A stretch of 64,000 bases of DNA, taken from positions 96,001 to 160,000 of the forward strand of contig CAXXXD010000001.1 in assembly GCA_963663385.2 (NCBI GenBank). The letters run 5' to 3'. Positions within the stretch are counted from its first letter, which is position 1. Each line of letters begins with the position of its first letter. The notes beneath the pieces were generated by a model. It ran no database searches. It was given only the letters and a program-made list of their open reading frames with translations, and was not told where the DNA came from. The position numbers and the translations under genes are program-made. Below, in pieces: positions 15,405-37,918 of the stretch. This DNA is from Oceanispirochaeta sp. Lineage in GTDB: Bacteria > Spirochaetota > Spirochaetia > DSM-2461.

Positions 15405-16870
15405 AAGAACAGAACATACTTTATATACTGACAGATCAACACCGCTGGGACATGCTGGGAGCCTATGGTCACCCTCAGGTAAAAACACCCCATATAGATT
15501 CTCTGGCCAGGGACGGCCTGACCTTTAATCATGCCTTTACCCCCTCTTCTATCTGCGGTCCCGCCCGGACCAGCCTTTTTACCGGGCAGGTCCCCACTAC
15601 ACACGGGGTAGCGCAGAATGCGGAAACCGGACACCTGCAGCATCATAAGGCTGATCCCCTGCCCGAGATCCCGACTCTGGGAGACTATCTGGCTGATTAT
15701 GAAAAGATCTACCTGGGAAAATGGCATATCGCCGAAACCAGACTGCCCTCGGATTACGGCTTCAAGGGCCACAATTTCCCCGGATACGGCTACCCGGGTT
15801 CTGGGGTTCACAAGAATCTGGTATTTGATCAGGGACCGGGAGAGAAAAACCGCTACAGGGACTGGCTGGAGGAAAAAGGGTACCCCATCCCGGAAGTCAG
15901 CGAAAGCTTTATGGGGAATAACCCCAATCTTCAGAAACAGGAACTGAGAGGAAAACTCAGCGGCACAAAGGAACACACCATCCCGGCCTTCCTTTACGAT
16001 GAGGCAAAAAGATACCTGACAAACAGAGATAAATCAAAACCCTTCTTTATGTGGATGAATTTCTGGGGCCCCCACACCCCCTGTACCATCCCCGAACCCT
16101 ACTACTCCATGTACGATCCCCGGGAAATTGCCGAAGACCCCGCCTTCAGGGAATCCTTCGAAAATAAACCTCTTCACCAAAAGCATATATCCTATATGTG
16201 GGGCGTACACGATTTGAACTGGGAGGAGTGGAGCCTTATAATCGCCCGCTACTTCGGATATATTACTTTGATTGACGACTATATCGGCCTTTTACTGGAT
16301 TTTTTGAAAGAAGAAGGCCTCTATGATAACACGACTATTGTGTTTACAGCTGATCACGGGGATGCCATGGGGGCCCACAGACTGATAGAAAAGGGTGAGT
16401 TCATGTACGATGAAACGTACCGGATTCCCATGATCGTCAAATCGCCGCTGATTAGAGAACCCGGATCCGGAAATGACGATTTCGTCTACCTTCATGATCT
16501 GTTTCCCACGGCCCTGGAACTGGCCGGGGAAGATCTGCCCGAACTGGACCAGGCCCGGAGTCTTGTTCCCATACTGAAAGGGGAATCCTCCCGGGCACCC
16601 AGAGAATTTGTCTACGGTCAGTTCACCGGACACTTTACCGACTACAATCAGAGAATGATACGGACAAAAGAGCACAAGCTGGTCTTCAATGCCCCGGAGA
16701 AGGGAGAACTCTACCACCTGACGGAGGACCCCTGCGAAATGATAAATCTTATCCATCACCCCGACTATAAAGGAGTAAAAAAAGATTTGATTAATCAGCT
16801 GCTGAAAGAAATGCGGCAGCTGAAGGATCCCATGACCGAGTGGGTAACCCGGATAAGTCAGTATTATTAA
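15401..16870 (+). CDS. Cys-type (formylglycine-dependent) sulfatase
   Basis: NILYILTDQHR, CGPARTSLFTG (CxPxR), GKWH, ADHGD motifs. Confidence 0.92.
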   Translation: MKEQNILYILTDQHRWDMLGAYGHPQVKTPHIDSLARDGLTFNHAFTPSSICGPARTSLFTGQVPTTHGVAQNAETGHLQHHKADPLPEIPTLGDYLADYEKIYLGKWHIAETRLPSDYGFKGHNFPGYGYPGSGVHKNLVFDQGPGEKNRYRDWLEEKGYPIPEVSESFMGNNPNLQKQELRGKLSGTKEHTIPAFLYDEAKRYLTNRDKSKPFFMWMNFWGPHTPCTIPEPYYSMYDPREIAEDPAFRESFENKPLHQKHISYMWGVHDLNWEEWSLIIARYFGYITLIDDYIGLLLDFLKEEGLYDNTTIVFTADHGDAMGAHRLIEKGEFMYDETYRIPMIVKSPLIREPGSGNDDFVYLHDLFPTALELAGEDLPELDQARSLVPILKGESSRAPREFVYGQFTGHFTDYNQRMIRTKEHKLVFNAPEKGELYHLTEDPCEMINLIHHPDYKGVKKDLINQLLKEMRQLKDPMTEWVTRISQYY

Positions 16871-16893
16871 GCCGCCACAGGGAAGGTTCAGAC

Positions 16894-17976
16894 ATGAAAG
16901 AGAAAACAAGGATACTGGTCGCCGGCTGCGGTGCCATGGGCCGTTCTCACAGCCTGGCTTACAGCAGACTGGAAGAGTTTGAAATTGTCGGGCTCGTCAG
17001 CCGCAATCCGGAAAGCCGGGAGGCTCTCGCCGGGGAACTGAACCTTTCCTGCCCCCTCTACAGTAACTATCAAACAGCGTTAAACGAACAGAGACCTGAC
17101 GCCGTGTCTATTAATACTCTGACCGACAGCCACTACAGCTATGCGAAAGCAGCATTGGAACAGGGATGCCATGTCTTTATGGAAAAGCCGGCGGCAGAAA
17201 CTGTCAGGGAAGCAGAAGATCTGATCCGGCTTGCCCGGAAGAAAAGCCGGGTGCTCCTGATCGGATACATTCTGCAGCATCACCCGGCCTGGCAGGAGTT
17301 TACCAGAGCGGCCCGTAACCTGGGCAGTCCGCTGGTCATGAGAATGAACCTGAACCAGCAATCCAGCGGCAGGGGCTGGGAAAAACACAAAAGCAAACTG
17401 GAAACCCTGTCGCCTCTGGTGGAATGCGGCGTCCATTATGTAGAGATCATGTGCCGCATGACTGGCTCACAGCCTCTCAGGGTCAGTGCGGCAGGAGCAC
17501 GGCTTACCGGGGAGATTCCGGAATCTTCCCATAATTACGGGCATATGCAGATAGAGTTTTCCGACGGTTCCATCGGCTGGTATGAATCAGGCTGGGGTCC
17601 CATGATGAGCCGGAATGCTTTTTTTATCAAGGATGTCTGCGGCCCCGGGGGAAGCGTCAGCCTTATCCCCTCTCCGAATAAAAGGCCCTATGAATCCAGT
17701 TCGCTTGATGATCATACAAGAACAGACTGCCTGGAAATACACAGAAGCAAACTGAACGACTGCGGTGATTTTGCCGGGAAGGACAGGATACACGAATTCA
17801 GTCCGGAAGAGTCTCCGGGGCATGACGGACTTTGCCTGCTTGAGCAGAGATTTTTCCTTAAGGTGATTCAGGAGGGTTTGGACCTCGGGGATCATCATAG
17901 AACCGTTGTCAACAGCCTGAGAATTGTTCTGGCTGCTGAAAAGTCAATCAGAACAGGAGAAACGGTGCCCCTGTAG
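16894..17976 (+). CDS. Gfo/Idh/MocA-family oxidoreductase
   Basis: GCGAMG Rossmann motif, HVFMEKP, CGVHY. Confidence 0.88.
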   Translation: MKEKTRILVAGCGAMGRSHSLAYSRLEEFEIVGLVSRNPESREALAGELNLSCPLYSNYQTALNEQRPDAVSINTLTDSHYSYAKAALEQGCHVFMEKPAAETVREAEDLIRLARKKSRVLLIGYILQHHPAWQEFTRAARNLGSPLVMRMNLNQQSSGRGWEKHKSKLETLSPLVECGVHYVEIMCRMTGSQPLRVSAAGARLTGEIPESSHNYGHMQIEFSDGSIGWYESGWGPMMSRNAFFIKDVCGPGGSVSLIPSPNKRPYESSSLDDHTRTDCLEIHRSKLNDCGDFAGKDRIHEFSPEESPGHDGLCLLEQRFFLKVIQEGLDLGDHHRTVVNSLRIVLAAEKSIRTGETVPL

Positions 17977-18062
17977 TATCCATAGCAGACAATGGCACCG
18001 GGTACAGATATCTCACAGTCACTGAACAGTCAACAGCAGACCAGAAGTTTGACTCATCCTTA

Positions 18063-18668
18063 ATGGGGAACTATTCTTGTATTATGATAAAGAAATTCCT
18101 GTCCGTACTGAAAAAACGCGATTTGAAAATAAGGGATCTCTACAGGATTCAGGGGAAACGGGTTCAGATTGATATCAGGATTTCCAGCTATCAGGATTTT
18201 TTCAGTGACTGGGATTATTCTCCGATTAAAATGAGAGATCTTAACGATGACCTTTTTTCCTATCTTCTGGAATGCAGCATGGAGATTCCCCAGAAATACC
18301 CGCTGGATATCGTCCTTCATATACCTGAAGGAGTTAAAAACGAAAAAAAGGAACTGTCCAACAGAACCAGTTACAGGAACTATCTGCTGTATCGCCACCG
18401 CCTCTGCCTGCGGGAAAGGCAAAACAGCTATATCAGGATGGTGTGGTTCTTTCTATTCGGAGTTCTGTTTATCGGTATTGGATATTTCCTTGAAGGACAC
18501 GAAAGGTTCGCGGTCATAAAAATCCTTAAAGAAGGTTTTTTTATCGGAGGCTGGGTCCTTTTCTGGGAACTCTTTTCTTCGCTGTTCTTCAATATCAGGG
18601 AGTTGGACAAACGCATCTCAATGGTCAATCGACTGGTGAAAGCCGGCCTGGAATTCCATTATCACTGA
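18063..18668 (+). CDS. Hypothetical membrane protein (two C-terminal TM helices)
   Basis: Soluble N-terminus with FSDWDYSP..RDL motif, two hydrophobic helices ending IGGWVLFWE. Confidence 0.65.
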   Translation: MGNYSCIMIKKFLSVLKKRDLKIRDLYRIQGKRVQIDIRISSYQDFFSDWDYSPIKMRDLNDDLFSYLLECSMEIPQKYPLDIVLHIPEGVKNEKKELSNRTSYRNYLLYRHRLCLRERQNSYIRMVWFFLFGVLFIGIGYFLEGHERFAVIKILKEGFFIGGWVLFWELFSSLFFNIRELDKRISMVNRLVKAGLEFHYH

Positions 18669-18827
18669 TTCGGAGCGGGAATCCCATTGTATTCGTAATG
18701 ATAATCAGCTCTGGTTCATCCTCTCAGATGCAGTATTATCTATGCATACCAGCCCCGGAGCCGGGGCGACAGCAGACTGGACAGGAGATATATCGCCGGC
18801 CATAATACCGGGACGAGGAACACCGGA

Positions 18828-20087
18828 ATGAAAAAGATTATTCAGAACACATTACTTGGTTCGGAAATTCAGGATATCCTGATTGAGGGGAGCAGAATTG
18901 CCGCTATAGGCTCCGGACTGGCAGCGGCTCATCCTGATGCAAGGATTATAGACGGCAGCGATACAGCAGTCTTCCCCTCTTTTATCAACGGGCATACACA
19001 CTCTCCCATGACCCTGCTCAGAGGAGCAGGGGACGACCTGGCTCTCAAGGAATGGCTGGAAGACTGCATGTGGCCCCTTGAAGCGCAATTTACAGATGAG
19101 GATTTCTACTGGGGCAACAAAATGGCCCTGATGGAAATGATCCGTACAGGGACCGGTTTTTTTAATGAAATGTACTGGAACCCGCACATTGCGCTGAAAG
19201 CCCTTGAAGGGGTTCCCCTTAAAGCTCGGATAAACTTTCCCGTAATGGACCTGATGGATCCGGATGAAGGAAAGAAGCAGTGGAAAAACTGCGAAGAATT
19301 TTTCAGAAAGACAACTGCACCTCCCGGTGTTCAGCTGGGGACTGTTCTTCACTCGGTCTATACAAACAGCAGGAAATCCCTAGAGTGGATCAGAGATTTC
19401 GCCGCAGAGAGAAACCTTCCCATCCATATTCATATATCTGAAACAGAAAGAGAGGTGAAGGACTGCATGGAAGCCCATGAAGGTCTCAGTCCTGTCGAAT
19501 ACCTCCACAGGCTGGGAGTCCTGTCGGAGCGGACTTTTGCGGCCCATACGGTCCACCTTTCGGATCGGGATTTGGAGATCCTGTCCGATACAGGAGTAAA
19601 TGTAATACATAACCCGGGATCCAATATGAAGCTTTCATCCGGAGTATTTCCCTACAGGGCACTGAAAGACAGAAACATACCGATCCTTCTGGGAACTGAC
19701 GGAGTCGCCTCAAACAATAACCTGGATATGCTGGAAGAGATGAAACTGGCGGCCCTGCTGCAGAAGGTGCATTCCGGGGACCCCACACTGATGACCGCTG
19801 AAGAGATTTTTACGATTGCGACACAGAAGGGCGCGGATCTGTTCGGTACAGGCGGAGGAGTTATTGAGGTTGGCAGGGAGGCGGATCTGATTCTGATGGA
19901 CCTGAAGTCCCCCGCTCTTTTTCCAACCTGGAATCTGATTTCCTCCATGGTTTACAGCGCTTCGGGCAGGGATGTGAAAACCCACATTTCAGCCGGTAAT
20001 GTTCTTATGGAGGACTATAAAATACCCGGCTATGAAGACGCTTTGGAGGGAGCGGCCCGCTGCTTCAACAGATTGAAATCCCTATAA
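18828..20087 (+). CDS. Amidohydrolase, MTA/SAH/5'-deoxyadenosine deaminase-like (MtaD paralogue 1)
   Basis: NGHTH, HIHISET, AHTVHL, GTDGVASNN motifs; next to mtnA/mtnP cluster. Confidence 0.8.
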   Translation: MKKIIQNTLLGSEIQDILIEGSRIAAIGSGLAAAHPDARIIDGSDTAVFPSFINGHTHSPMTLLRGAGDDLALKEWLEDCMWPLEAQFTDEDFYWGNKMALMEMIRTGTGFFNEMYWNPHIALKALEGVPLKARINFPVMDLMDPDEGKKQWKNCEEFFRKTTAPPGVQLGTVLHSVYTNSRKSLEWIRDFAAERNLPIHIHISETEREVKDCMEAHEGLSPVEYLHRLGVLSERTFAAHTVHLSDRDLEILSDTGVNVIHNPGSNMKLSSGVFPYRALKDRNIPILLGTDGVASNNNLDMLEEMKLAALLQKVHSGDPTLMTAEEIFTIATQKGADLFGTGGGVIEVGREADLILMDLKSPALFPTWNLISSMVYSASGRDVKTHISAGNVLMEDYKIPGYEDALEGAARCFNRLKSL

Positions 20088-20116
20088 CTGGAACCGCTTC
20101 AATTAACTTCAATGGT

Positions 20117-20148
20117 TTCCGCCTGCTTCCCGGAGTAAACAGGCGGAA
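20117..20148. terminator. Hairpin between convergent amidohydrolase and aldolase genes
   Basis: TTCCGCCTG...CAGGCGGAA inverted repeat. Confidence 0.55.
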
Positions 20149-20168
20149 CGATTAACGGAGTGTATCGA

Positions 20169-20825
20169 TCATTTCCCCTGGCCGTAATGATTCCTGGCAA
20201 AATCCTGCATGGCGCGAATGTCTTCTTCCGAGATAAGCTTGGGAGTCCCGATAGCTCTGGCCATATAGTAGATCCGTGCGGATTTCTCCACTACAAAGAT
20301 ATTTTTCATGGCACCGGGGAAATCCGCTCCGACCACAACGGTCCCGTGATTGGGAATCATAACGGCATTTCTTTCGCCCAGGCCTTTAACGACATTCTCT
20401 GCCAGTTCGGGCGTTCCGGGCAGAGCATAGTCACAGTTGATAATCTTATCGCCGATGATCTGTACAAAATCTTCACTTATCCCGGGAAGATCTTCGTTGA
20501 GAACTCCGAAAACACTGGAATAGACCGGATGGGTATGAATAACGACATTCACATCCTTTCGGGCATTCATAATTGCAATATGAAAATTGAACTCGATTGA
20601 AGGTTTTCTATGACCGTCAACGACTTCGAAGTCCGAGTTCATTACAACAACATCCTCTTCCTTTATATCCGGGTAGGGCATTCCGCTCGGCTTGATATAA
20701 ATCAGGCCGGTTTCGGGATCTCGTGTACTGAGGTTCCCCCAGGTCCCTACGGTAAGTCCCTGATCAAGCATATTCATACCGGCATCAACAATTTCTTTTT
20801 TCAACGCTCTGGAAATTTTCGGCAT
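20169..20825 (-). CDS. Class II aldolase (FucA-like; probable methylthio-/5-deoxy-ribulose-1-phosphate aldolase)
   Basis: GTWGNLS, KPSG, PSIE, HTH, NHG Zn motifs; divergent from the mtnA operon. Confidence 0.85.
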   Translation of the reverse strand: MPKISRALKKEIVDAGMNMLDQGLTVGTWGNLSTRDPETGLIYIKPSGMPYPDIKEEDVVVMNSDFEVVDGHRKPSIEFNFHIAIMNARKDVNVVIHTHPVYSSVFGVLNEDLPGISEDFVQIIGDKIINCDYALPGTPELAENVVKGLGERNAVMIPNHGTVVVGADFPGAMKNIFVVEKSARIYYMARAIGTPKLISEEDIRAMQDFARNHYGQGK

Positions 20826-20936
20826 TGTATTTCTCCTTGGTCTTTTATATCCAATACATTTATAAGAATTTTATCCTGCCTCTGTAACAGGCAAAGAGAA
20901 CAATTCTTCTCTAAATAGTAATAATACCCTCTTCCC

Positions 20937-20957
20937 TTCCTGTCAACCTGACAGGAA
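20937..20957. promoter_or_regulatory. Perfect 9-bp inverted repeat, candidate GntR operator
   Basis: TTCCTGTCA-ACC-TGACAGGAA in the divergent aldolase/GntR intergenic region. Confidence 0.55.
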
Positions 20958-21015
20958 ACCCATATCTGATTTATCCAACATAAATTAATAAAACCATGAT
21001 TTTAGCAAATATTAT

Positions 21016-21044
21016 TTGACAACACAAACATTCAGTTATAACCT
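21016..21044 (+). promoter_or_regulatory. Putative sigma70 promoter of the gntR-mtnA operon
   Basis: TTGACA-17 nt-TAACCT. Confidence 0.5.
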
Positions 21045-21053
21045 GAGCAATAT

Positions 21054-21863
21054 ATGTCTGAGGAATCAAACGATATTATGCCTAAAATTGCAAATTTGTC
21101 CGACATTTCAAAAACACGAAACAAGGCTCTCAAGAAACTCAAAGGAAGCAAGGGCCAGACTCTCAGCCATATGGCGCGGAAGAGGATTATCGAGTATATC
21201 AAAAAGAATGAGGTCCAGCCCAACGACGCCCTTCCTACTGAAGCTGCCTTTATGAAAATTCTGGATGCCAGCCGGCATACCGTAAGAGAAGCCCTGGTTC
21301 TGATGGAACAGGAAAACCTTATCTACAAGATTCAGGGAAAAGGGACATTCCTGAAAAAACGGCCGATTCATATTGAGAGCGGCCTGGAAAAGCTGGAAAG
21401 CATCACAGAAACGGTAGAAGGATATGATCTGACCCCGGGAACGCAGTGGATCGGCATAGAGATCAAGAATCCTACCGAACAGATGACCGAAGAGCTGAAT
21501 CTGACACCCGGAGAAAAAGTCATAACCTTTAAAAGGGTCAGAACCGCAAACGGGAACCTGGCTTCCTACTGTGTCGATACCATGCCCCTCAGATACTTTG
21601 AGACGATTCCTCATGAGATCAATGAGGAATCGCTCTTCTCCTATCTGGAGAAGAATCTGGGGATTCATATTGAGAGCGCTGTTACCTATCTTGTCCCCAC
21701 TCTCCCCACCGGAGAGATGACTCATGAACTGGGAGTCCCGCAGGATCAGCTCTTTCTTCTGCTTCAGCAAATCCACTTTGACAGCAAAGGAACCCCGATG
21801 ATTTTTTCCAATGATTATTTCCAGCCGGATATTTTTAAATTCAAAGTCAATAGAACACGTTGA
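21054..21863 (+). CDS. GntR-family (HutC/UTRA) transcriptional regulator
   Basis: LPTE...SRHTVREAL...QGKGTF wHTH plus UTRA domain. Confidence 0.92.
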   Translation: MSEESNDIMPKIANLSDISKTRNKALKKLKGSKGQTLSHMARKRIIEYIKKNEVQPNDALPTEAAFMKILDASRHTVREALVLMEQENLIYKIQGKGTFLKKRPIHIESGLEKLESITETVEGYDLTPGTQWIGIEIKNPTEQMTEELNLTPGEKVITFKRVRTANGNLASYCVDTMPLRYFETIPHEINEESLFSYLEKNLGIHIESAVTYLVPTLPTGEMTHELGVPQDQLFLLLQQIHFDSKGTPMIFSNDYFQPDIFKFKVNRTR

Positions 21864-21869
21864 GAGGTA

Positions 21870-22931
21870 GTGATGAGCAAAATTATTTCGATGAAGTATG
21901 AAGAGGGCGTTTTAAAACTGATAGATCAGAGAAAACTCCCCGCAGAGTATGTCTATTTTGAGTGCAGGACTTATACGGAGGTTGAGTTTGCCATCAAGGA
22001 TATGGTTGTAAGGGGGGCTCCTGCCATCGGTGCGACCGCAGCCTACGGCGCACTTCTTGCTGCCCGTCAGTTTATCACCGATTATCCTGAGGATCGTTCC
22101 CGCTTTCTTTCAGAAATGGATAAGGCCCTCGATTTTCTGAATAACTCCAGACCCACAGCCGTCAACCTGATGTGGGCCGTAAAGAAAATGAAAGACTGCC
22201 TTGCCGCCAATGCGCAGGACCCGGATTCCCTTCTCATGGAAAAGATTCAGAGTCTTGCAGACAGCATCTTTGAGGAAGACAGGGAACTATGCATCAGCAT
22301 GGGACGACACGGTAACACGGTAATCCCCGAAGGAGCGACAATCCTGACCCACTGCAATACGGGGGCCCTGGCAGCGGCAGGACCCGGTACGGCTCTGGCA
22401 GTTGTACGGGAAGCCCACAATACGGGTAAGGGGATTTTCGTTTATGCTGATGAAACCCGTCCCAGAATCCAGGGCGGCCGTCTGACCGCCTGGGAACTGA
22501 TGCAGGAAAAGATCCCCTCCAAACTGATTGTGGACAGCACGGCGGCCACACTTATCCGCGACGGAAAAATCGATGTTATCCTTGTGGGTGCCGACCGGAT
22601 CGCCAACAATGGAGACGCCGCCAACAAGATCGGGACCTTTATGCTCTCGGTTCTGGCAAAAACCTATAATGTCCCCTTTTATATTGTAGCTCCGGTTACA
22701 ACCATTGATTTTGAGATGGAAAGCGGAGATGAAATTGAAATCGAAGAAAGGGATGCCTCGGAAATTACCCATATCAACGGGGTACAGATTGCTCCGGAAG
22801 GGATGGAAGTATACAATCCGGCCTTCGATGTAACACCCCATGAAAATATCACCGGTATTGTTACAGACCGGGGAATCATCTATCCGCCCTTCAAGGAGGG
22901 GATTGCAGACCTTAAGGAGTCTATAAAGTGA
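21870..22931 (+). CDS. mtnA: S-methyl-5-thioribose-1-phosphate isomerase
   Basis: DQRKLP, VRGAPAIG, SRPTAVNL, THCNTG, ETRP, GDAANKIGT, NPAFDVTP. Confidence 0.95.
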   Translation: MMSKIISMKYEEGVLKLIDQRKLPAEYVYFECRTYTEVEFAIKDMVVRGAPAIGATAAYGALLAARQFITDYPEDRSRFLSEMDKALDFLNNSRPTAVNLMWAVKKMKDCLAANAQDPDSLLMEKIQSLADSIFEEDRELCISMGRHGNTVIPEGATILTHCNTGALAAAGPGTALAVVREAHNTGKGIFVYADETRPRIQGGRLTAWELMQEKIPSKLIVDSTAATLIRDGKIDVILVGADRIANNGDAANKIGTFMLSVLAKTYNVPFYIVAPVTTIDFEMESGDEIEIEERDASEITHINGVQIAPEGMEVYNPAFDVTPHENITGIVTDRGIIYPPFKEGIADLKESIK

Positions 22932-24682
22932 GTTCTGCAGCCAATGCTATAGAAATCAGAGACCTTTCTTTCCGCTATAAAAGCGAAACCAGCGAAAAGA
23001 ATCCGCTTGCCCTGGATAATATCAACCTTGATATAAAGAAGGGCGAGTTCGTAGTCATTATGGGGCCAAGCGGCGCGGGAAAGTCCACCCTGGCCAACTG
23101 TCTCAACGGCCTTATCCCCCATTTTCAGCGCGGAGAGTATGAGGGCGAAGTAAAAGTCGATGAACTGATTGTTAAAAATGAGAAAGTCGGCCGCATGTCC
23201 AAAGAGATCGGCCTTGTTTTTCAGGACTTTGAAGCCCAGCTTTTTTCTACCAACACCATGCTGGAGCTGGCCTTCGGACCGGAAAACTTCGGAGTCCCCA
23301 GAGAGGAGATTCACAGACGGATTCTGGATGTCCTGAAAACAGTACAGCTTGAAGGGTTTGAGGAACGTCAGCCCTCCACCTTGTCGGGGGGACAGAAACA
23401 GCGACTGGCCATCGGATCCATACTGGCCACGGAACCCGAAATCATCTGTATGGATGAGCCCACTACCGACCTGGATCCTGTGGGGAAAATGGGAATCTTC
23501 AAGATTGCCCGGCACCTGCACTCCAAAAGTGAGTTCACCCTGCTGATTATTGAACACGAAACAGAAGAGGCTCTTCATGCGGACAGACTTATTCTGATGG
23601 AAAACGGTATCGTTCTCAAAGACGGCAGGCCCCGGGATATTCTGAAGGAAGTCGCCCTGACCGACAGAATCGGAATCCAGTCCCTTCAGGTGCCCAAGTT
23701 CTTCAAGGATCATCTGAAAGCTGAAACAGCCACTCTCCCCATGACTCCGGAGGAGGGATACGAAGCTTTTAACAAACTGGGAATTTCCATAGATGAGGAA
23801 GCTTATAACACAATCCTTAAAGCAGATGAAACCCGGGAGGCATCCTACGGTGAAGTTCTTATCGATGTCAAAGATCTGGTACATGTCTATCCCAACGGGA
23901 ACAAAGCGCTCAGGGGAGTCAGCATCCAGGTCCGGAAGGGAGAGTTCCTGGCTGTATTAGGGCATAACGGCAGCGGCAAGACCACCATGGTCAAACATTT
24001 CAACGGATTACTGTCTCCCAGTGAAGGGGACATCATCGTAAGAGACAAGAATACGAAGGAATCATCCATATTTGAAATCGGCAAAACGGTAGGTTATGTA
24101 TTCCAGAATCCCGATCATCAGATTTTCTCCGATACAGTATTCGAAGAGGTATCCTTCAGCCCCAAACTGAGAGGCTGCAGCAAAGAAGAGATCAGAGAAC
24201 GGGTAACGGAAGCCCTTAAAGCCGTTGGAATGGAGGGAACCGAAGAGGAAGATCCCTTCTCCATGACCAAAGGACAGAGACAGCGGATCGCGGTTGCCTC
24301 GGTACTGTCTGCCAAACCGGAAGTCATTATTCTGGATGAACCCACAACCGGACTGGATTACAAGGAACAGCGCCAGATGATGGAGCTTATCCGGAATCTG
24401 AACCAGAAGGGACACACCATTATCATGATTACCCATACCATGTGGGTCGTTGCCGAATACGCCCATAAAGTCGCTGTGGTTAAGGACGGTGAAATGAGTA
24501 TGTACGGCAGAACAAGAGATGTCTTCAAGGATGAGGACACCCTGATGGAATCCTATCTGAAAACCCCGCATATTGTTAATTTAAGCAACAAATTAGGCAA
24601 GACCGTTCTCTCTGTAGATGAGATGAAAAGCTGTGTAAACGCAGCCGCCGAAAAGACGGTGTCCGCAGGAATAGGAGAATAA
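22928..24682 (+). CDS. ECF transporter duplicated ATPase (A-A')
   Basis: Two NBDs (GPSGAGKS/LSGGQKQ/MDEP and GHNGSGKT/MTKGQRQ/LDEP), VFQNPDHQ. Confidence 0.92.
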   Translation: MSSAANAIEIRDLSFRYKSETSEKNPLALDNINLDIKKGEFVVIMGPSGAGKSTLANCLNGLIPHFQRGEYEGEVKVDELIVKNEKVGRMSKEIGLVFQDFEAQLFSTNTMLELAFGPENFGVPREEIHRRILDVLKTVQLEGFEERQPSTLSGGQKQRLAIGSILATEPEIICMDEPTTDLDPVGKMGIFKIARHLHSKSEFTLLIIEHETEEALHADRLILMENGIVLKDGRPRDILKEVALTDRIGIQSLQVPKFFKDHLKAETATLPMTPEEGYEAFNKLGISIDEEAYNTILKADETREASYGEVLIDVKDLVHVYPNGNKALRGVSIQVRKGEFLAVLGHNGSGKTTMVKHFNGLLSPSEGDIIVRDKNTKESSIFEIGKTVGYVFQNPDHQIFSDTVFEEVSFSPKLRGCSKEEIRERVTEALKAVGMEGTEEEDPFSMTKGQRQRIAVASVLSAKPEVIILDEPTTGLDYKEQRQMMELIRNLNQKGHTIIMITHTMWVVAEYAHKVAVVKDGEMSMYGRTRDVFKDEDTLMESYLKTPHIVNLSNKLGKTVLSVDEMKSCVNAAAEKTVSAGIGE

Positions 24683-24686
24683 AGTT

Positions 24687-25481
24687 ATGGATATGTTTTT
24701 ATACCTCGACAAGGATACCTTTCTGCACCGTCTTGATCCGAGAACAAAGATGTTTGTCATGCTCTGCTCTTTTATCATCGCCCTCAGCTTCACATCACTC
24801 TATGTTCTGGCTGGACTCTCGATAGTTATCATTGCCTATGGGATGGCAGGACGGGTTCTGAGCAATCTGAAACGCATCTGGTTCATACTTGTTATGATAT
24901 TTCTGTTTTCAATTGTCCTCTGGTCGCTTACCTTCGGCGGCCCGACAAAACTCTGGGGCCCCATTTCCCTGGAAGGGCTGGAGTACGGAATTATGACGGG
25001 AATCCGTTTCGATATCATGATCGTATCGGGGATGATCTTTCTCAGTGCGTCCAAGATTGAAGAGATATCCCTGGGACTTGTAAAGCTGAAACTGCCCTAC
25101 CGCGGCGCCTTTGCGTTTTCCACCGCCATCCGCCTGGTCCCCATGATCGTTGCGACCAGCTACACCATTGCGGAAGCCCAGAAATCCCGGGGGCTGGATC
25201 TTGAATCGGGAAACTTTTTTCAGAGGGCCAGAAAATTTGTTCCCCTTCTGGTTCCCACACTGATTTCGGTAATCCGGGGTACAAATGTGTTTGCCATGGC
25301 ACTGGAATCCAAAGGCTTTGGCTATTCAGAAAAAAGAACCAACTATATGGATATCCATTTTAAAAAAAGTGATGGCATGGTATTCACAATATCATTTATT
25401 CTAACAGCAGGAATGATTGTCGCCCATATCATGGGACTTGATGACACTCTGTATTCATGGATCAAAAGTCTCCGGATCTAG
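24687..25481 (+). CDS. ECF transporter T component (EcfT/CbiQ family)
   Basis: LHRLDPRTK, AQKSRG, ALESKG motifs. Confidence 0.92.
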   Translation: MDMFLYLDKDTFLHRLDPRTKMFVMLCSFIIALSFTSLYVLAGLSIVIIAYGMAGRVLSNLKRIWFILVMIFLFSIVLWSLTFGGPTKLWGPISLEGLEYGIMTGIRFDIMIVSGMIFLSASKIEEISLGLVKLKLPYRGAFAFSTAIRLVPMIVATSYTIAEAQKSRGLDLESGNFFQRARKFVPLLVPTLISVIRGTNVFAMALESKGFGYSEKRTNYMDIHFKKSDGMVFTISFILTAGMIVAHIMGLDDTLYSWIKSLRI

Positions 25482-25544
25482 TCCGGATTCTTTCTGATAG
25501 ATAAAGACTTTGATAATCAGATAAATATCTGAGGAGGAAAGAAA

Positions 25545-26345
25545 GTGAAAGACGTTTTCAAGATGTGGAAAGAGACAAAAATGGTTGTTCTCGTCGCCCT
25601 TTGTGCGGGTATCTACGCAGCGGTACTGATTCCTTTTAAGGGATTTGTAATCATCCCCGGTTTTACAGAGTTCAGACCCGCCAGCGGCCTTCCCATTATG
25701 ATGGGACTTCTCTTCGGCCCCGCAGGAGCATGGGGAGCGGCTATCGGTAACCTGATCGGAGACTTTTTCGGCTCCCTGGGAATCGGCAGTACATTCGGTT
25801 TTGTCGGAAACTTTCTGTTTGCCTATGTCCCCTACAAAGTATGGAGAAACCTGGGAATCATGAAAGAGGATGAACTGGAACCCAGCCTCAAGTCAGGAAA
25901 ACAGATCGGAGCTTTTGTACTGGTTTCTTTCCTCGGAGCGGCAGCCTGTGCCCTCTTTATAGCCTGGGGTCTGGACCTCCTTCAGATGGTTCCCTTTGCC
26001 GCGCTGGGAACAATCATTACAGCCAACAACTTTATCCCTTCCGTCGTTCTTGGTATCCCTCTTACTCTGGTTCTCTATCCCAGAATCAAGAAGTGGCACC
26101 TTCTCTGGACGGATATCATGGCTGAAGAAGATATTCCCGTAATCAATGCCAAATCAAGAATTTCCGGGATCCTTATGACCATCTTTACAGTCGGCGGAAT
26201 TGTGGGCGGTCTGTTTTTCGCTCTCGGAGGCGGACAGGAAATGTTTGCAGCCGGTTTTGGCGCAGGCGGTGCAGGAAACATCGGCGTAGCCGTTATAGCC
26301 GGTATCGGTTCAATCGGTATCCTCATTGCAGGTATTATCGAATAA
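25545..26345 (+). CDS. ECF transporter S component (QueT/MtsT-like)
   Basis: Highly hydrophobic; EFRPA..LP..MGLLFGPAGAWGAAIGNLIGD motif; GAGGAGG RBS. Confidence 0.8.
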   Translation: MKDVFKMWKETKMVVLVALCAGIYAAVLIPFKGFVIIPGFTEFRPASGLPIMMGLLFGPAGAWGAAIGNLIGDFFGSLGIGSTFGFVGNFLFAYVPYKVWRNLGIMKEDELEPSLKSGKQIGAFVLVSFLGAAACALFIAWGLDLLQMVPFAALGTIITANNFIPSVVLGIPLTLVLYPRIKKWHLLWTDIMAEEDIPVINAKSRISGILMTIFTVGGIVGGLFFALGGGQEMFAAGFGAGGAGNIGVAVIAGIGSIGILIAGIIE

Positions 26346-26450
26346 TCTGTTTACCAGCAGACTCCCGGGCAGTCCGGGGGGCTGTTATTTATTTTTCAGG
26401 CTGGTCGCAAGCGGAGCTTGCTTCCCGCCTATGCAACCTAGGAGACTCCA

Positions 26451-27638
26451 TTGAAAAAAGATGATTTTAAATTCGACACCCTTTCCATACATGCCGGAGG
26501 TAAGCACAGGAATCCCGAAAACGCTCTCAATCCTCCGATTTTTCAGACATCCACCTTTGTATTCGAAAGTACGGACCATGTGGATGATGTTATGTCCTTC
26601 AAGAGCGATGACTATGTTTACACAAGGGGAAACAACCCGACATTGAGGCTCCTGGAACAGAGAATGGCCGTTCTGGAAAACGGCAGCTCCGCAGTTGCCT
26701 TTGCTTCGGGGATGGCGGCTATCAGCTCCGTTCTCTTCTCTCTCACAAAACCCGGTGATAATATTCTGGTTCACAAGACTCTCTACGGTTCGTCCTACAA
26801 TGTGGTGACCTCACTGCTTCCCAAATACAATGTTACCAGCCGGATCCACGATCTGTCCAATACAGAAAATCTGGGAGATGCCGTTGATGAGAACACAAAA
26901 GTTATCTATTTTGAAACCCCCAGCAATCCCAATCTTTCCATTATTGATATTGAAAAAATCACCTCCTTTGCCAAAGGAAGAGGTATAAAAGTCGTTATAG
27001 ATAATACATTTGCCACCCCCTACTTTCAGCGGCCCCTGGAAATGGGCGTCGATGTGGTGGTTCACTCGGCTACAAAGTACATCTGCGGCCACGGCGATGT
27101 GGTAGCCGGCATTGCGGTTGCCAGGGATGATAAATACATTCAGACTCTGAAGTTCGATTATATGTGCGAGTTCGGCGGCGTCATGAGCCCCTTCAACGCC
27201 TGGCTCCTCCTGAGAGGCCTCAAAACCCTGGGAGTCAGAATGAGACAGCACGAACAGAATGCCATGGCAATAGCCCGCTACCTGGAAAAACATCCCAAGG
27301 TTACCTCCGTTCTGTATCCGGGACTGGAGTCTTTCCCGGGTCACAAAGTAGCCGCCAGGCAGATGAGCGGGTTCGGCGCCATGATCAGTTTCGAGGTGGA
27401 CGGCGGTCTGGATAAGGCTAAAAAAGTTGTCAACAGCGTCAAACTGGCCCAGCTGGCTGTAAGCCTGGGAGACTGTGAAACCCTGATCGAACTGCCCGCA
27501 GCCATGACCCACAGGGGCTATGATAAAGCCAAACTGGCGGAATTCGGCCTGACAGAGAGTATGGTCAGGATCTCTGCCGGACTGGAAGACGTGGAAGATC
27601 TCATCAAAGATATCGATCAGGCCCTGGCGCAGATCTGA
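26451..27638 (+). CDS. PLP-dependent Cys/Met gamma-lyase family enzyme (methionine gamma-lyase-like)
   Basis: PPIFQTSTF, YTRGNNPT, FASGMAA, ETPSNP, DNTF, SATKYICGHGD, AVSLG. Confidence 0.88.
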   Translation: MKKDDFKFDTLSIHAGGKHRNPENALNPPIFQTSTFVFESTDHVDDVMSFKSDDYVYTRGNNPTLRLLEQRMAVLENGSSAVAFASGMAAISSVLFSLTKPGDNILVHKTLYGSSYNVVTSLLPKYNVTSRIHDLSNTENLGDAVDENTKVIYFETPSNPNLSIIDIEKITSFAKGRGIKVVIDNTFATPYFQRPLEMGVDVVVHSATKYICGHGDVVAGIAVARDDKYIQTLKFDYMCEFGGVMSPFNAWLLLRGLKTLGVRMRQHEQNAMAIARYLEKHPKVTSVLYPGLESFPGHKVAARQMSGFGAMISFEVDGGLDKAKKVVNSVKLAQLAVSLGDCETLIELPAAMTHRGYDKAKLAEFGLTESMVRISAGLEDVEDLIKDIDQALAQI

Positions 27639-27732
27639 CAAACAGATATTCATCCGGTACGGCAGTATCCCGTTCCGGATACCCCCCGCTGCAGTCAACC
27701 GGCGGCAGTATTGATCACCATGGAGGAATATA

Positions 27733-29031
27733 GTGAAAATTCTGATACAGGGAGGACAAATCCTGACAATGGCTCAGGATGAACCCGAAATACTACAGAC
27801 GGATATCGGTATCGACAACGACAGGATTGCCTTTATCGGCGCTCCTTCAGCCGGATTCAAAGCAGACAAAACAATAGATGCCTCGGACACCCTGATAATG
27901 CCCGGTCTCGTAAATGCCCATACGCATATATCCATGTCCCTTCTGCGCAGCTACGCCGATGATCTTCCCTTCTGGGAATGGCTCTTTGAAAGAATTATGC
28001 CCGTTGAAGAGAACATGACCTCCGAATTTGCCTACAACGGGGCCCGTCTGAGCCTGATTGAGATGATAAAGAGCGGAACCACCACCTTTGCTGACATGTA
28101 TTTTTTTATGGACAGGGTCGCCCAGGCGGTGGAAGAGAGCGGTGTCAGAGCCAATCTGTCGCGGGGCGCGACTTTCATCAATGGCGACAGCGACCTGGAT
28201 AAACTGGATGAATCCGAAGAGTTTTTTACTAAGTGGAACGGCAGAGCCGATGGCCGTATTAAAGTGGATATTGCCCCGCACGCCCCCTATACCTGCCCTC
28301 CCAAATACATAAAACTCTGCGGAGAACTGGCCCGGAAGCTGGGAACCAACATTCATATCCACCTGTCCGAAAGCCGCAAGGAGGTTGAGGACAGCAGAAA
28401 GGAACACGGGAAATCGCCCATTCAGCATGTGCATGATCTGGGACTTTTTGATTCCCGTACCTATGCGGCCCACTGTGTCCATATTTCCGAAGACGATATA
28501 AAAATCATGGCGGAAAAGGGTGTTACAGCAGTAAACAATCCCACAAGCAACTTCAAACTGGCCAATGGATTCGCCCCTGTGACAAAACTCCTTGAAGCAG
28601 GTGTGAATGTGGCTCTCGGAACAGACGGTCCCGGCTGCAATAACAACACCAATATGTTTGAAGAGATTAACCTGGCGGCTCTGGCCAACAAGGCTGTCGA
28701 GGAAAATCCAACAGTAGTTCCGGCTTATACAGCTCTTAAAATGGCCACTGTTAACGGAGCGAAGGCTTTAGGACTGGAGGATGAAATCGGTACTCTGGAA
28801 AAGGGAAAGAAAGCCGATATGATACTGATTGACCTGAAAAAGGCTCATTTCTATCCCCGGTATAACCTGATATCCTCCCTGGTTTATTCTGCACAGGGAT
28901 CAGATGTAAAAACGGTACTCTGTAACGGCAGGATTCTTATGGAAGATTACAAACTGCTTACTCTGGATGAAGAAACAGTATTCAGGGAAGCAGAAATATC
29001 AGCCCGTAAAATGACAGGAGAGATGGCATGA
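27733..29031 (+). CDS. mtaD: 5-methylthioadenosine/S-adenosylhomocysteine deaminase (MtaD paralogue 2)
   Basis: NAHTH, APHAPYT, HIHLSES, AHCVH, GTDG motifs; in operon with mtnA and mtnP. Confidence 0.85.
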   Translation: MKILIQGGQILTMAQDEPEILQTDIGIDNDRIAFIGAPSAGFKADKTIDASDTLIMPGLVNAHTHISMSLLRSYADDLPFWEWLFERIMPVEENMTSEFAYNGARLSLIEMIKSGTTTFADMYFFMDRVAQAVEESGVRANLSRGATFINGDSDLDKLDESEEFFTKWNGRADGRIKVDIAPHAPYTCPPKYIKLCGELARKLGTNIHIHLSESRKEVEDSRKEHGKSPIQHVHDLGLFDSRTYAAHCVHISEDDIKIMAEKGVTAVNNPTSNFKLANGFAPVTKLLEAGVNVALGTDGPGCNNNTNMFEEINLAALANKAVEENPTVVPAYTALKMATVNGAKALGLEDEIGTLEKGKKADMILIDLKKAHFYPRYNLISSLVYSAQGSDVKTVLCNGRILMEDYKLLTLDEETVFREAEISARKMTGEMA

Positions 29032-29795
29032 GAAAAGCAATAATCGGCGGAACCGGAGTTTATGATACCCCGGGAATGACCCGCACAGAAACAGTTAATA
29101 CCAAATACGGTAATGTTGAGGTGGATATTGTAAAATGGGAGAATGAGGAAATTGTCTTTCTGGCAAGACACGGAAAAGGCCATTCGGTCCCCCCCCATCT
29201 GATCAACTACAGAGCCAATATGATGGCGCTCAAACAGCTGGATGTCAGTCATATCTATGCAACCTGTGCCGTAGGTTCCTGCAACAGAAACTATGCCCCC
29301 GGAGATACTGTGATTATCAGAGATTTTCTGGATTTCACCAAAATCCGCCCGGTAACGTTTTTTGACGGAGAAGAAGGTGTCAAGCATACCGATATGTCAG
29401 ATCCCTACTGTAAAAACCTGAGGGCCCTATACAGCAGGGAGGCCGCTAAAGAGGGCATTGAGATCAAGGGGGATGCCGTATACGTCTGCACCGAAGGACC
29501 CCGGTTTGAAACAGCCGCCGAAATCAGAATGTATGAAAAGATGGGCGGGGATGTTGTGGGAATGACCAATGTTCCGGAAGTGCAGCTGGCCAAGGAGCTG
29601 GGGATATGCTATGCCGCCGTAGGGCTGATTACAAACTGGTGTACCGGCTTCGTGAGCGATGACATTGTGATCCATGACATTATGGCAACCATGGCAGCCA
29701 ACAAGGATGCCATTACAAAGCTTTTTCTGTCTATTCTCTCAAATGATCCGAAGCGGGATAAATGCAGCTGTCGGAATGCCGTTATGGATATGTAA
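29028..29795 (+). CDS. mtnP: Methylthio-nucleoside phosphorylase, probably S-methyl-5'-thioinosine (6-oxopurine) type
   Basis: IIGGTG, LARHG..H..PPH.INYRAN, EGPRFETAAE, VGMT; ITNW instead of MTAP TDYD. Confidence 0.88.
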   Translation: MRKAIIGGTGVYDTPGMTRTETVNTKYGNVEVDIVKWENEEIVFLARHGKGHSVPPHLINYRANMMALKQLDVSHIYATCAVGSCNRNYAPGDTVIIRDFLDFTKIRPVTFFDGEEGVKHTDMSDPYCKNLRALYSREAAKEGIEIKGDAVYVCTEGPRFETAAEIRMYEKMGGDVVGMTNVPEVQLAKELGICYAAVGLITNWCTGFVSDDIVIHDIMATMAANKDAITKLFLSILSNDPKRDKCSCRNAVMDM

Positions 29796-30044
29796 CACCC
29801 CCCTGAAGATCCCCGGGGCATTCAGATCAACCAGGATCGGTTTCGAATGCTTTGGGGATTGGAATGACTGTTAAGTATTTATCGGAATAACAGAAGATAA
29901 ATACATACAAAAAAAGACATTTAATGTAAATAAATTAGAACAAAATCTTCTTATTCATGAATATTTATGTATAATATTGATGATATAGTCATTTTTGAGA
30001 TTATTGCGATAATCGATTATACTAACTGGTAAGGAGATTTATCC

Positions 30045-31235
30045 ATGAGCAGAGAACTCATCCGTCATCTATCAAGTGAACTGGCGGCCCTTCATGAACA
30101 GGGTCTGTATAAATCCGAACGGATTATCACAACGCCTCAGCAGGCGGATATTAAAGTAAAAGACGGCGGAGAAGTCCTGAACTTCTGCGCGAATAACTAC
30201 CTGGGGCTGTCGAATAATCCCGAGTTGATAAAAGCGGCCCAGAAGTCATTGGAAGAGTACGGCTACGGCCTGTCCTCTGTTCGGTTTATTTGCGGAACCC
30301 AGACCATCCATAAGGAACTGGAAGCCAGGATCAGCTCTTTTCTGGGAACGGAGGATACCATACTCTACTCCTCCTGCTTCGATGCCAACGGCGGTCTGTT
30401 TGAAACCCTGCTGGGTCCGGAAGACGCCATAATCAGCGATGCCCTTAACCATGCCAGTATCATCGACGGCGTCAGGCTCTGTAAAGCCCGGCGTTTCCGC
30501 TACGCCAATAACGATATGACCGAACTGGAAACCAGACTGAAAGAAGCCCGTACAGCCCGTTTCCGCCTGATTGCCACAGACGGCGTGTTCTCCATGGACG
30601 GCACAATAGCCAACCTGAAAGCCATCTGCGATCTGGCAGACAAATATGACGCCCTGGTTATGGTGGACGACTCTCATGCCGTCGGGTTTATGGGAGAAAC
30701 CGGCGCGGGAACCCCCGAGTTCTGCGGAGTGAAAGACCGGGTGGATATTATCACCGGAACCCTGGGCAAAGCTTTGGGCGGAGCCTCGGGAGGATACACG
30801 TCCGGAAAAAAAGAGATCATCAGCTGGCTCAGACAGCGCTCAAGACCATATCTGTTCTCAAACTCTCTGGCTCCTGTCATGACAGCCACGGCTATCCGCA
30901 CCCTGGAACTGCTCCAGGAATCAAGCGAACAGAGGGACCGGCTGTTCTCTCACACCCGTCTGTTCCGCCGTTCCCTGAAAGAAGCCGGGTTCAATATTGT
31001 GGAAGGAGAACACCCTATCGTTCCCCTGATGCTGGGAGACGCGGCTCTGGCTGTAAAAATGGCGGGGATTCTCCTGAACAAGGGAATCTATGCCATCGGA
31101 TTCTCCTACCCGGTGGTCCCCATGGGAGCCGCCCGTATCCGTTTCCAGATGTCCGCAGGCCATACGGAGGAGCAGGTAAAATATGCCATTGAAAAGATTA
31201 TCGAAACCGGGAAGGATCTGGAGATAATAAAATGA
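30045..31235 (+). CDS. kbl: 2-amino-3-ketobutyrate CoA ligase (glycine C-acetyltransferase)
   Basis: [41 protein letters not shown]. Confidence 0.96.
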
Positions 31236-32257
31236 AAGCACTGTCCAAACTGAAAAAAGAAGAAGGCCTCTGGATGATAGACGCTCCCGAACCGGAGTAC
31301 GGTCCCAATGACCTTCTTATTAAAATCAAGATTACCGCCATTTGCGGTACGGATGTTCACATCTACAACTGGGACCACTGGTCACAGCAGACAATCCCTG
31401 TTCCCATGATTACCGGTCATGAGTTTGTGGGAACCGTTGAAGCCATGGGAAGCGAAGTGGCCGGATTCAAAATCGGCGACCGGGTTTCCGGCGAAGGCCA
31501 TATTACCTGCGGTCACTGCCGGAACTGCCGGGCCGGAAAGCGGCACCTCTGCCGTAATACGGAAGGAATCGGGGTAAACAGACAGGGCTGCTTTGCGGAG
31601 TACCTGGTTATGCCCGCCTACAATGCCTTCAAGCTGGATGATTTTATCTCCGACGAAACAGCGGCCATTTTTGATCCCTTCGGCAACGCCGTTCATACGG
31701 CCCTCTCCTTTGACCTTGTGGGAGAGGATGTGCTGATCACCGGAGCCGGTCCCATCGGGATAATGGCGGCATCCGTTGCCAGACATGCCGGAGCCCGTTA
31801 TGTCATTATTACGGACGTAAATGAATACCGTCTGAACCTGGCCCGTCAGATGGGCGCTACCCGGGCTGTCAACATACAGACAGACAAACTGGAAGATGTA
31901 ATGAGCGAGCTTCATATGCTGGAAGGTTTTGATGTGGGACTGGAAATGTCCGGGAATGTCCGGGCTCAGCATCAGATGTTCAGGATGATGAATAACGGCG
32001 GACGTGTAGCCCTGCTGGGGATCCCCCCGGGGGAATCACCGGTTGACTGGAACCAGATTATCTTCAAGGGGCTCCAGCTGAAAGGGATCTACGGCCGGGA
32101 GATGTTTGAAACCTGGTACAAGATGGCCGCCATGATCCGCTCGGGTCTGGATATCAGCCGGATTATTACCCACCGCATGTCTGTGGATGAATTCAAGAAA
32201 GGATTCGACATTATGCGTTCAGGTCAGTCCGGAAAGGTCCTGTTGTACTGGGAGTAA
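31232..32257 (+). CDS. tdh: L-threonine 3-dehydrogenase
   Basis: [39 protein letters not shown]. Confidence 0.96.
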
Positions 32258-37917: not shown

Positions 37918-37918
37918 A

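Follow-up and report, generated by a model that had tools for sequence, protein, structure and literature searches.

By what route does a bacterium remove the nucleoside by-products of S-adenosylmethionine (SAM) when the enzymes ordinarily used for this purpose are missing from its genome? This question is raised by a ten-gene cluster at positions 18828–29795 of a 64,000-nt stretch of DNA from Oceanispirochaeta sp. (contig CAXXXD010000001.1, positions 96,001–160,000; hereafter the window, with its own genome designated G000). S-adenosylhomocysteine (SAH), 5′-methylthioadenosine (MTA) as well as 5′-deoxyadenosine (5′-dAdo) inhibit the very enzymes that produce them; hence, every cell needs a route for their removal. 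The cluster combines two deaminases, an MtnP-family phosphorylase, the isomerase MtnA and a class II aldolase with an energy-coupling factor (ECF) transporter, a methionine-γ-lyase-type enzyme and a GntR regulator. We propose, with moderate confidence, that it is a deamination-first version of the dihydroxyacetone phosphate (DHAP) shunt that serves both the uptake and the cell’s own disposal of 5′-substituted adenosines, probably including SAH.

The genes were called from an open reading frame (ORF) listing together with profile searches (Pfam and the NCBIfam/TIGR cut-offs) of the window ORFs. These verified the coordinates and order of all ten genes, and the make-up given in an earlier note prepared from the sequence, namely gntR-mtnA-ecfAA′-ecfT-S component-γ-lyase-mtaD-mtnP with a divergent class II aldolase and a second deaminase, stands in full. 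When window positions 14000–33400 were compared at the DNA level with 10 other genomes of the genus, homology to the congener G409 was found to span 18828–29795 exactly, with the first deaminase gene forming its left edge and mtnP its right edge; in a second congener, G406, the homology has the same limits (18828 and 29795) and is spread across two contigs. All ten genes are collinear in G409 with 80–91% amino-acid identity, the deaminase at 18828 being kept in the same place at 80%. The flanks of the cluster differ from those in G409 and G406: the upstream 4.8 kb has no counterpart in the congeners, and the genes encoded upstream are those for a sulfatase, an oxidoreductase and a sugar ABC system. 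As the homology stops at the edges of the cluster and the flanks differ, it can be understood as an accessory module occupying varying sites; the ~11-kb block is a unit and not a chance juxtaposition. It occurs in 2 of the 10 other congeners. Of 401 genomes sampled from the whole phylum, 2 have its S component, as do 6 of 61 relatives; the own genome is counted in each case. The kbl-tdh pair at 30045–32257 was considered as a part of the cluster and rejected: its products, which make up a threonine degradation pair, pass the equivalog models for glycine C-acetyltransferase and threonine dehydrogenase, and it is present in 10 of 10 congeners, but at other sites. Just upstream of the cluster lies a 201-aa ORF (18063–18668, + strand) that matches no Pfam or NCBIfam family and has no counterpart beside the G409 cluster.

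A pointer to the role of this module comes from what the rest of the genome (5.3 Mb in 4 contigs, 98% complete) lacks. Genome-wide profile searches recovered no match over cut-off for MtnB, MtnK, MtnN, AhcY or LuxS, the only weak MtnN-like match being DeoD, and the single MtnP and single MtnA that score over cut-off are both those of the cluster. With neither MtnB nor MtnK over cut-off, the genome does not conform to the universal methionine salvage pathway. The earlier note had reported no mtnB, C, D, W or K in the window and had proposed a genome search for mtnB, mtnD and mtnW: no gene of the MtnB/C/D/W/K type turned up among the Pfam-scanned window ORFs, and the genome-wide part was run for MtnB with the result given above, MtnC, MtnD and MtnW being searched in the window. 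The cluster is thus the only recognizable means of removing the cell’s own MTA, 5′-dAdo and SAH in this genome. The note had further taken the cluster to serve scavenging rather than housekeeping, a distinction that is not borne out: since MtnN, LuxS, AhcY and MtnK are missing and the only MtnP and MtnA reside in the cluster, it must also handle the cell’s own disposal. Among the ten other congeners, MtnN and LuxS are each found in 9, with luxS adjoining mtnN, and AhcY in none; the one congener devoid of both MtnN and LuxS is G409, which holds the cluster. In G402 and G405, mtnN-luxS sits between two genes whose orthologs in G000 are separated by 66 bp, with no break in the contig (C2:1155080–1155147); because the flanking genes abut in this manner, the absence of mtnN-luxS is real and not an assembly gap.

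A comparable picture emerges from 38 genomes of the family, six of which hold the S component: G000, G406 and G409, and, in a second genus, G432, G435 and G436. AhcY is found in none of these holders and MtnN in one (G406), leaving 5 of 6 with neither, while AhcY and/or MtnN are present in 29 of the 32 non-holders, the three with neither being 71, 73 and 90% complete. A Fisher test of holder status against the loss of both AhcY and MtnN (p = 6e-4) overstates the case, as the holders represent two lineages only and three of them are metagenome-assembled genomes of 77–87% completeness; the family pattern is two concordant cases, not a statistic. With this proviso, the module has apparently replaced Pfs/LuxS or AhcY in two lineages. 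The replacement test covers this one spirochaete family and two other genomes, both of which have AhcY: G458 (Anaerolineae), whose version of the cluster is without the γ-lyase, and G459, which has the ECF module alone.

The individual enzymes fit such a role to differing degrees. The MtaD-type deaminase (27733–29031, + strand; 432 aa; PF01979, 278 bits), predicted to act on MTA, SAH or 5′-dAdo, has as its closest PDB entries the Chromobacterium MTA/SAH deaminase 4f0r (E 2e-86) and Tm0936 (E 8e-80). The amidohydrolase-superfamily deaminase paralog that begins the cluster (18828–20087, + strand; 419 aa; PF01979, 216 bits) is 39% identical to it and likewise finds 4f0r as its best PDB match (E 2e-66). 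In a sequence alignment in which Tm0936 His55, His57, Trp75, Glu84 and Arg136 fall at the positions that we take to be theirs, Arg144 and Lys157 of the 27733 deaminase align with Tm0936 Arg136 and Arg148, which presumably hold the homocysteine carboxylate of S-inosylhomocysteine (SIH), and the 18828 paralog has a Phe at the position of Arg136. This faintly suggests that the two deaminases may divide the substrates between them. The MtnP-family phosphorylase (PNP_UDP_1; 29028–29795, + strand; 255 aa; PF01048, 145 bits) is closest in the PDB to archaeal MTA phosphorylases (E 4e-57), with the Pseudomonas aeruginosa entry 3ozb at 7e-43, and passes the methylthioinosine (MTI) phosphorylase model NF006599 by only 1.5 bits (224.5 versus 223). 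Its start overlaps the stop of mtaD by 4 nt, and the same overlap is seen between the stop of mtnA and the start of ecfAA′. MtnA, the 5-methylthioribose-1-phosphate/5-deoxyribose-1-phosphate isomerase (21870–22931, + strand), scores 444 bits with TIGR00512 against a cut-off of 279. The class II (metal-dependent) ketose-1-phosphate aldolase (20169–20825, − strand and thus divergent; 218 aa; PF00596, 164 bits) has 6btd/6btg as its nearest solved structure (E 5e-41), followed by the FucA proteins of Streptococcus pneumoniae (1e-37) and Escherichia coli (~1e-27); 6BTD/6BTG is DrdA, described as the 5-deoxyribulose-1-phosphate aldolase of Bacillus thuringiensis (PMC6079011). Finally, the best PDB matches of the Cys/Met pyridoxal phosphate (PLP) enzyme of the methionine-γ-lyase type (26451–27638, + strand; 395 aa; PF01053, 487 bits) are all bona fide methionine γ-lyases (E 2e-115 to 2e-104), and orthologs of at least 90% identity exist only in the three cluster-holding congeners, the paralogs of the other congeners being at most 39% identical.

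Several further genes of these families were seen outside the cluster. A second, different MtnA (~403 bits) is encoded in G409 (C96:19074–20054) and in G410 (C74:6447–7427), the latter without the ECF cluster, a hint that the genus may have a further pathway built around MtnA. The window codes for another class II aldolase at 61300–61929 (+ strand; PF00596, 160 bits; 31% identical to that of the cluster), which is the best match to the MtnB model in the genome, with 71 bits against a cut-off of 137, and lies beside flavin reductase-like and arginase-family genes. In two related loci, a Zn-dependent alcohol dehydrogenase gene is placed between the aldolase/regulator genes and mtnA (L036, 4545–5519; L054, 1247–2200); such an enzyme would fit the reduction of the shunt aldehyde, and there is no gene of this kind in the window cluster.

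The transporter is encoded by three adjacent genes, each of whose products passes its model: a fused EcfA–EcfA′ ATPase (22928–24682, + strand; 584 aa; TIGR04520, 496 versus 315 bits; two ABC_tran stretches), the transmembrane coupling component EcfT/CbiQ (24687–25481, + strand; 264 aa; PF02361, 80.8 versus 25 bits) and a “long QueT” S component (25545–26345, + strand; 266 aa; PF06177 QueT, 67.8 versus 33.7 bits). The same trio recurs in related loci, as in dedicated, group I ECF systems. In the S component the QueT domain, its sole family match, covers residues 15–178, with a Gly-rich membrane extension of ~85 aa after it, making the protein ~100 aa longer than the Pfam domain. It has 2761 homologs, the best 120 of which are 259–286 aa long and 61–91% identical; an 18-member alignment has a mean column identity of 73%. 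The homologs, which come from Clostridia, Synergistota, Spirochaetota and Halanaerobium, are publicly named “QueT transporter family protein”, and the language-model neighbours of the S component are also named QueT.

We examined the gene-neighborhoods of 86 loci with relatives of the S component, drawn from 4 species genomes, 80 metagenomes and 2 members of the same spirochaete family, with their ORFs clustered without reference to annotation. The ecfAA′ family is present in 52 of the 86 loci, adjoining the S gene wherever that flank is retained, and EcfT in 50. The commonest neighbours after these are MtnP (18 loci), MtnA (15), the MtaD-type deaminase (12), the γ-lyase (12), the class II aldolase (11) and adenosylhomocysteinase (11), with GntR and RpiR regulators (5 each) being next. 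At least one of these six SAM by-product enzyme families is found in 34 of the 86 loci and in 21 of the 41 loci of at least 8 kb, with near-duplicate loci (e.g., L027, L028 and L029) inflating the neighbour counts. Gene orders differ between the lineages. The adenosylhomocysteinase, which scores ~590 bits with NF004005 against a cut-off of 275, is encoded directly 3′ of the S gene in 11 metagenome loci (L059, L062, L066, L067, L069, L079, L083, L084, L087, L098 and L105), and these contexts show zero overlap with the 23 loci that feature MtnP, MtnA, the deaminase, the lyase or the aldolase. The common thread connecting these neighborhoods is that, barring the regulators and one Pyr_redox_2 family, all the nameable recurrent neighbours are SAM by-product enzymes, with no queuosine gene among the nameable recurrent families of the 86 loci. 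As the nameable neighbours act on 5′-substituted adenosines, the transported substrate can be sought among these; adenosylhomocysteinase, for its part, acts on SAH only. Thus, it is plausible from the neighbour families that the ECF system imports SAH, MTA and/or 5′-dAdo rather than a queuosine precursor, which makes nucleoside import by a dedicated transporter, as the earlier note had it, a reasonable proposition. Several of the loci with adenosylhomocysteinase continue with a thioredoxin-reductase-like Pyr_redox_2 gene, and L059, L066 and L102 have in common, on the upstream side, genes for a cytosine/purine permease, a LysE exporter and a luciferase-like monooxygenase.

Hence, we propose the following course of events, the inputs to which would be external nucleosides brought in by the ECF transporter and the products of the cell’s own use of SAM. 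The EcfAA′–EcfT–S complex would import SAH, MTA and 5′-dAdo-type nucleosides, after which one or both deaminases would convert their adenine moiety to hypoxanthine. The MtnP/MTI-type phosphorylase would then free hypoxanthine and a 5-substituted ribose-1-phosphate, to be isomerized by MtnA to the ribulose-1-phosphate, which the aldolase would cleave to DHAP and an aldehyde; the methionine-γ-lyase-type enzyme would handle the sulfur amino-acid part. The suggestion of a DHAP shunt was already made in the earlier note, and the enzymes do fit a phosphorylase/MtnA/class II aldolase shunt operating after deamination, with DrdA as the nearest solved aldolase and mtaD and mtnP overlapping by 4 nt.

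That SAH is among the substrates is pointed to by the adenosylhomocysteinase neighbours of the transporter family and by the presence of the γ-lyase, and might be read as follows. As SAH needs removal and there is neither AhcY nor Pfs, its taking the same route is the most economical guess: the deaminase would yield SIH, which would undergo phosphorolysis by the MtnP-type enzyme and isomerization by MtnA, the aldolase would then yield DHAP and S-(2-oxoethyl)homocysteine, with the latter split by the γ-lyase to give 2-oxobutyrate, ammonia and a C2 thiol. The γ-lyase might instead act first, on SAH or SIH. In some lineages imported SAH would feed this route, in others a plain adenosylhomocysteinase. 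The module would then be a third route of SAH disposal, independent of both AhcY and Pfs/LuxS, with the same ECF family importing SAH, a tentative extension to which we accord clearly less than an even chance. A literature search, with most subscription journals outside its coverage, found no demonstration of any step of this branch.

A number of observations weigh against the proposal or parts of it. We know of no enzyme that frees or removes the homocysteine part of SIH here, making this step a conjecture. Several of the enzymes fall short of the curated models for the activities ascribed to them: the 27733 deaminase scores below the MtaD/DadD models NF012037 (303 versus 779), NF005557 (394 versus 522) and NF004701 (518 versus 609), with the 18828 paralog lower still on all three; the phosphorylase fails the MTA phosphorylase model TIGR01694 (256 versus 274.85); the γ-lyase-type enzyme is below the TIGR01328 cut-off (491 versus 549.7); and the aldolase passes no curated NCBIfam aldolase model. 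The Tm0936-like Arg is seen only in the window-type deaminases (those of the window, G406, G409 and L036) and is absent from the cluster deaminases of the genus-g154 and Chloroflexi types; being confined in this way, it was rejected as a general marker of SAH use. The ECF module is without a SAM by-product gene nearby in 52 of the 86 loci (20 of the 41 of at least 8 kb), these comprising loci with the ECF module alone and loci too short to tell. One holder of the cluster, G406, retains mtnN-luxS. Lastly, contig C2 encodes two paralogs of the aldolase, with 80% and 70% identity to it, that belong to DeoR-regulated sugar ABC operons, and the substrate of the cluster aldolase may be an ordinary deoxy-sugar phosphate.

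These observations lend themselves to other explanations. One could hold that the cluster purely scavenges external MTA and 5′-dAdo as a source of carbon, nitrogen or sulfur, with housekeeping being done elsewhere. An energized importer and a local repressor are indeed typical of catabolic operons, and the module is accessory, occurring in 2 of 10 other congeners, one of which is the mtnN-luxS-bearing G406; yet, with no other MtnN, MtnP, MtnK, AhcY or LuxS detectable in a 98%-complete genome, with mtnN-luxS cleanly gone from its syntenic site and with 5 of the 6 holders in the family devoid of AhcY and MtnN, we regard this as rather unlikely. The aldolase and the deaminase upstream of it might also be bystanders, with the actual unit running from gntR to mtnP and either ending at the ribulose-1-phosphate or feeding an unknown step, and the aldolase being meant for deoxy-sugars of the fuculose/rhamnulose type. 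Its divergent orientation and its closeness to the above-mentioned sugar-operon paralogs would agree with this; the 80% identity to one of these means that its substrate range is unreadable from the sequence. The two paralogs (70% and 80% identical; ORFs 6942–7604 and 13956–14612 of L113, G000:C2:727000–746500) each follow a divergent DeoR regulator and head a sugar ABC operon, one of which ends with a gene for a rhamnulokinase-like kinase. Moreover, identity between the cluster aldolase and its counterparts in other cluster versions is only 39–43%, as against 61–76% for the other genes. However, the block shared by homology with G409 and G406 takes in both the aldolase and the extra deaminase, class II aldolases occur in 11 loci that differ in lineage and gene order, as if the activity were needed and recruited more than once, the closest solved relative is DrdA, and there is no MtnB or MtnK with which classical salvage could continue. 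As it is closer to its own paralogs than to the aldolases of other clusters, the aldolase seems to have been locally recruited, which would itself support the need of the pathway for such an activity. On balance, the bystander explanation appears improbable to us.

We likewise give little credence to the possibility that the cluster is primarily a device for sulfur or methionine salvage, in which the γ-lyase-family enzyme would catalyze γ-replacement and return a thiol or sulfide to homocysteine and methionine. Such a re-entry of thiol derived from the shunt aldehyde would be akin to that by O-acetylhomoserine sulfhydrylase after the Rhodospirillum rubrum shunt; the Cys/Met PLP family includes both lyases and sulfhydrylases, with our protein being below the methionine γ-lyase cut-off, and a split MetH would permit the methylation of homocysteine. 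Nevertheless, its nearest solved relatives are true γ-lyases (E 2e-115), with synthases and sulfhydrylases matching far less closely, separate paralogs in the genome (36–39% identity) fit the synthase and sulfhydrylase roles, and no enzyme that would free methanethiol from 2-methylthioethanol is seen in the cluster. As for the S component, a straightforward interpretation of its name would be that it is a genuine QueT, importing a queuosine precursor or another vitamin, and that its location in the cluster is incidental. The Pfam QueT domain is its sole family match, and the public names and language-model neighbours concur. The hallmark of QueT is control by a preQ1 riboswitch or linkage to queuosine genes, and neither is seen here: there is no preQ1 or other riboswitch in the window, and the recurrent nameable neighbours are SAM by-product enzymes with no queuosine genes among them. 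The protein also extends ~100 aa beyond the Pfam domain and its subfamily brings along its own EcfAA′T. The chance that it is a true queuosine-precursor transporter thus seems to us very slim. We therefore retain the deamination-first DHAP-shunt module for uptake and own disposal as the preferred reading.

With regard to regulation, the GntR protein with a UTRA domain (HutC subfamily; 21054–21863, + strand; 269 aa; PF00392, 47 bits; PF07702, 98 bits) probably keeps the genes repressed in the absence of a pathway intermediate. GntR homologs adjoin the cluster in 5 related loci, with other versions carrying RpiR or DeoR regulators instead. The divergent intergenic region between the aldolase gene and gntR (20826–21053) is a candidate operator/promoter region with blocks conserved in G409, and contains a perfect palindrome, TGTCAACCTGACA, at 20941–20953, which is found a single time in the cluster and has an imperfect form in G409. 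Allowing up to 2 mismatches, the palindrome has 2 matches in the window, a number also reached in 30 of 100 shuffles and hence no more than expected by chance; as an operator it is a lead only. The same holds for a terminator-like hairpin with a T-run in the gap between the S and γ-lyase genes (26362–26386, + strand), which matches the consensus and is a possible attenuation point or operon boundary. Neither the promoter scan (19 found versus 15.3 expected) nor the terminator scan (18 versus 13.2) of the sequence rose above the shuffles, and riboswitch control was rejected, as no Rfam family, including the preQ1 riboswitch, reached its gathering score anywhere in the window.

The proposed pathway can be set beside several known systems. 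P. aeruginosa continues from the deamination of MTA into classical methionine salvage, and in methanogens SAH is converted to SIH, which is then acted upon by an AhcY-like hydrolase. Our cluster would share with the methanogen route the initiation of SAH removal by an MtaD/DadD-type deaminase without Pfs; unlike in the methanogens, there is no AhcY homolog in the own genome, so that the second step would be new. A deaminase followed by a hypoxanthine-releasing phosphorylase is described for both P. aeruginosa (MTA deaminase and MTI phosphorylase) and Methanocaldococcus jannaschii (DadD and MtiP) (PMC6302742). Here too deamination would come first, with a phosphorylase that just passes the MTI model and is translationally coupled to the deaminase; the genes of those two organisms are, however, not described as a single transporter-containing operon. 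The DHAP shunt itself comes in the forms of MtnP-MtnA-Ald2 in R. rubrum and Pfs-MtnK-MtnA-Ald2 with the repressor MtnR in extraintestinal E. coli. What is shared with these is the phosphorylase, MtnA, the class II aldolase, the lack of MtnB/C/D and a local repressor, whereas the two deaminases placed first, the built-in ECF importer and γ-lyase, and a regulator of the GntR/UTRA rather than the DeoR type set our cluster apart. E. coli is reported to grow on exogenous 5′-deoxynucleosides by means of its locally regulated DHAP shunt (PMC10986504, PMC12632272), with Pfs, which every E. coli keeps, as the primary detoxifier (PMC10986504); the host studied here, in contrast, is without Pfs. The DrdK-DrdI-DrdA system of B. 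thuringiensis furnishes the closest solved relative of the aldolase, at a moderate similarity (E 5e-41), and differs in having a kinase and in lacking the ECF transporter with a QueT-like S component, the deaminases and the γ-lyase. Phosphorylase-type clusters are described in Clostridium phytofermentans, and the same paper points to clusters accompanied by putative sugar transporters, which might salvage substrates from outside (PMC6079011). For the transporter, the nearest precedent is the TCDB “Methylthioadenosine (MTA) family” (3.A.1.33), a listing of predicted ECF systems with MtaT as the S component and with 6–7 transmembrane segments (TMS) (PMC3654945). The likeness is in being of the ECF type, with the carriage of MTA predicted from genome context; the listing gives no more than the family name and TMS counts. 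Unlike the MtaT listing, the long-QueT loci feature AhcY neighbours, which would extend the predicted substrates to SAH as well as MTA. Beyond the TCDB listing, we found no literature on an ECF system for these nucleosides in a search that left most subscription journals outside its coverage.

Thus, several elements are already on record, as far as the cited reports go: the DHAP shunt and its phosphorylase variant, transporter-bearing clusters, growth on 5′-deoxynucleosides supplied from outside and a local repressor (PMC6079011, PMC10986504, PMC12632272). New are the fixed tie of such a shunt to a dedicated ECF importer from a family that bears the wrong name, the incorporation of deaminases and a γ-lyase, the tie of this transporter family to adenosylhomocysteinase and the way in which the module appears to have replaced Pfs/LuxS or AhcY in two lineages. 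A recent paper states that virtually all organisms recycle SAH through some form of the active methyl cycle (PMC10986504), and the two spirochaete lineages devoid of either known SAH entry enzyme share this module. Were the proposal to be borne out, the DHAP shunt would go from two substrates to three, methionine γ-lyase would gain a defined partner pathway, and a large and widespread family of S components named “QueT” would acquire a substrate class. A further consequence would be an exchange of SAH and related nucleosides among the microbes of anoxic sediments and sludges, the type of sample that figures as the stated origin of many of the related contigs.

Two further features of this genome may be recorded. 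Its MetH is split between two adjacent ORFs (C2:831105–834457), one for a homocysteine-binding piece of 310 aa and the other for the remaining 858 aa, and MetE was not found in the own genome. Elsewhere in the window, at 36097–37944 (− strand), a 615-aa protein displays an unusual domain combination of an ABC ATPase with HisKA and HATPase_c; its gene adjoins those for a sigma-54-dependent response regulator (37919–39235) and a sugar ABC transporter.

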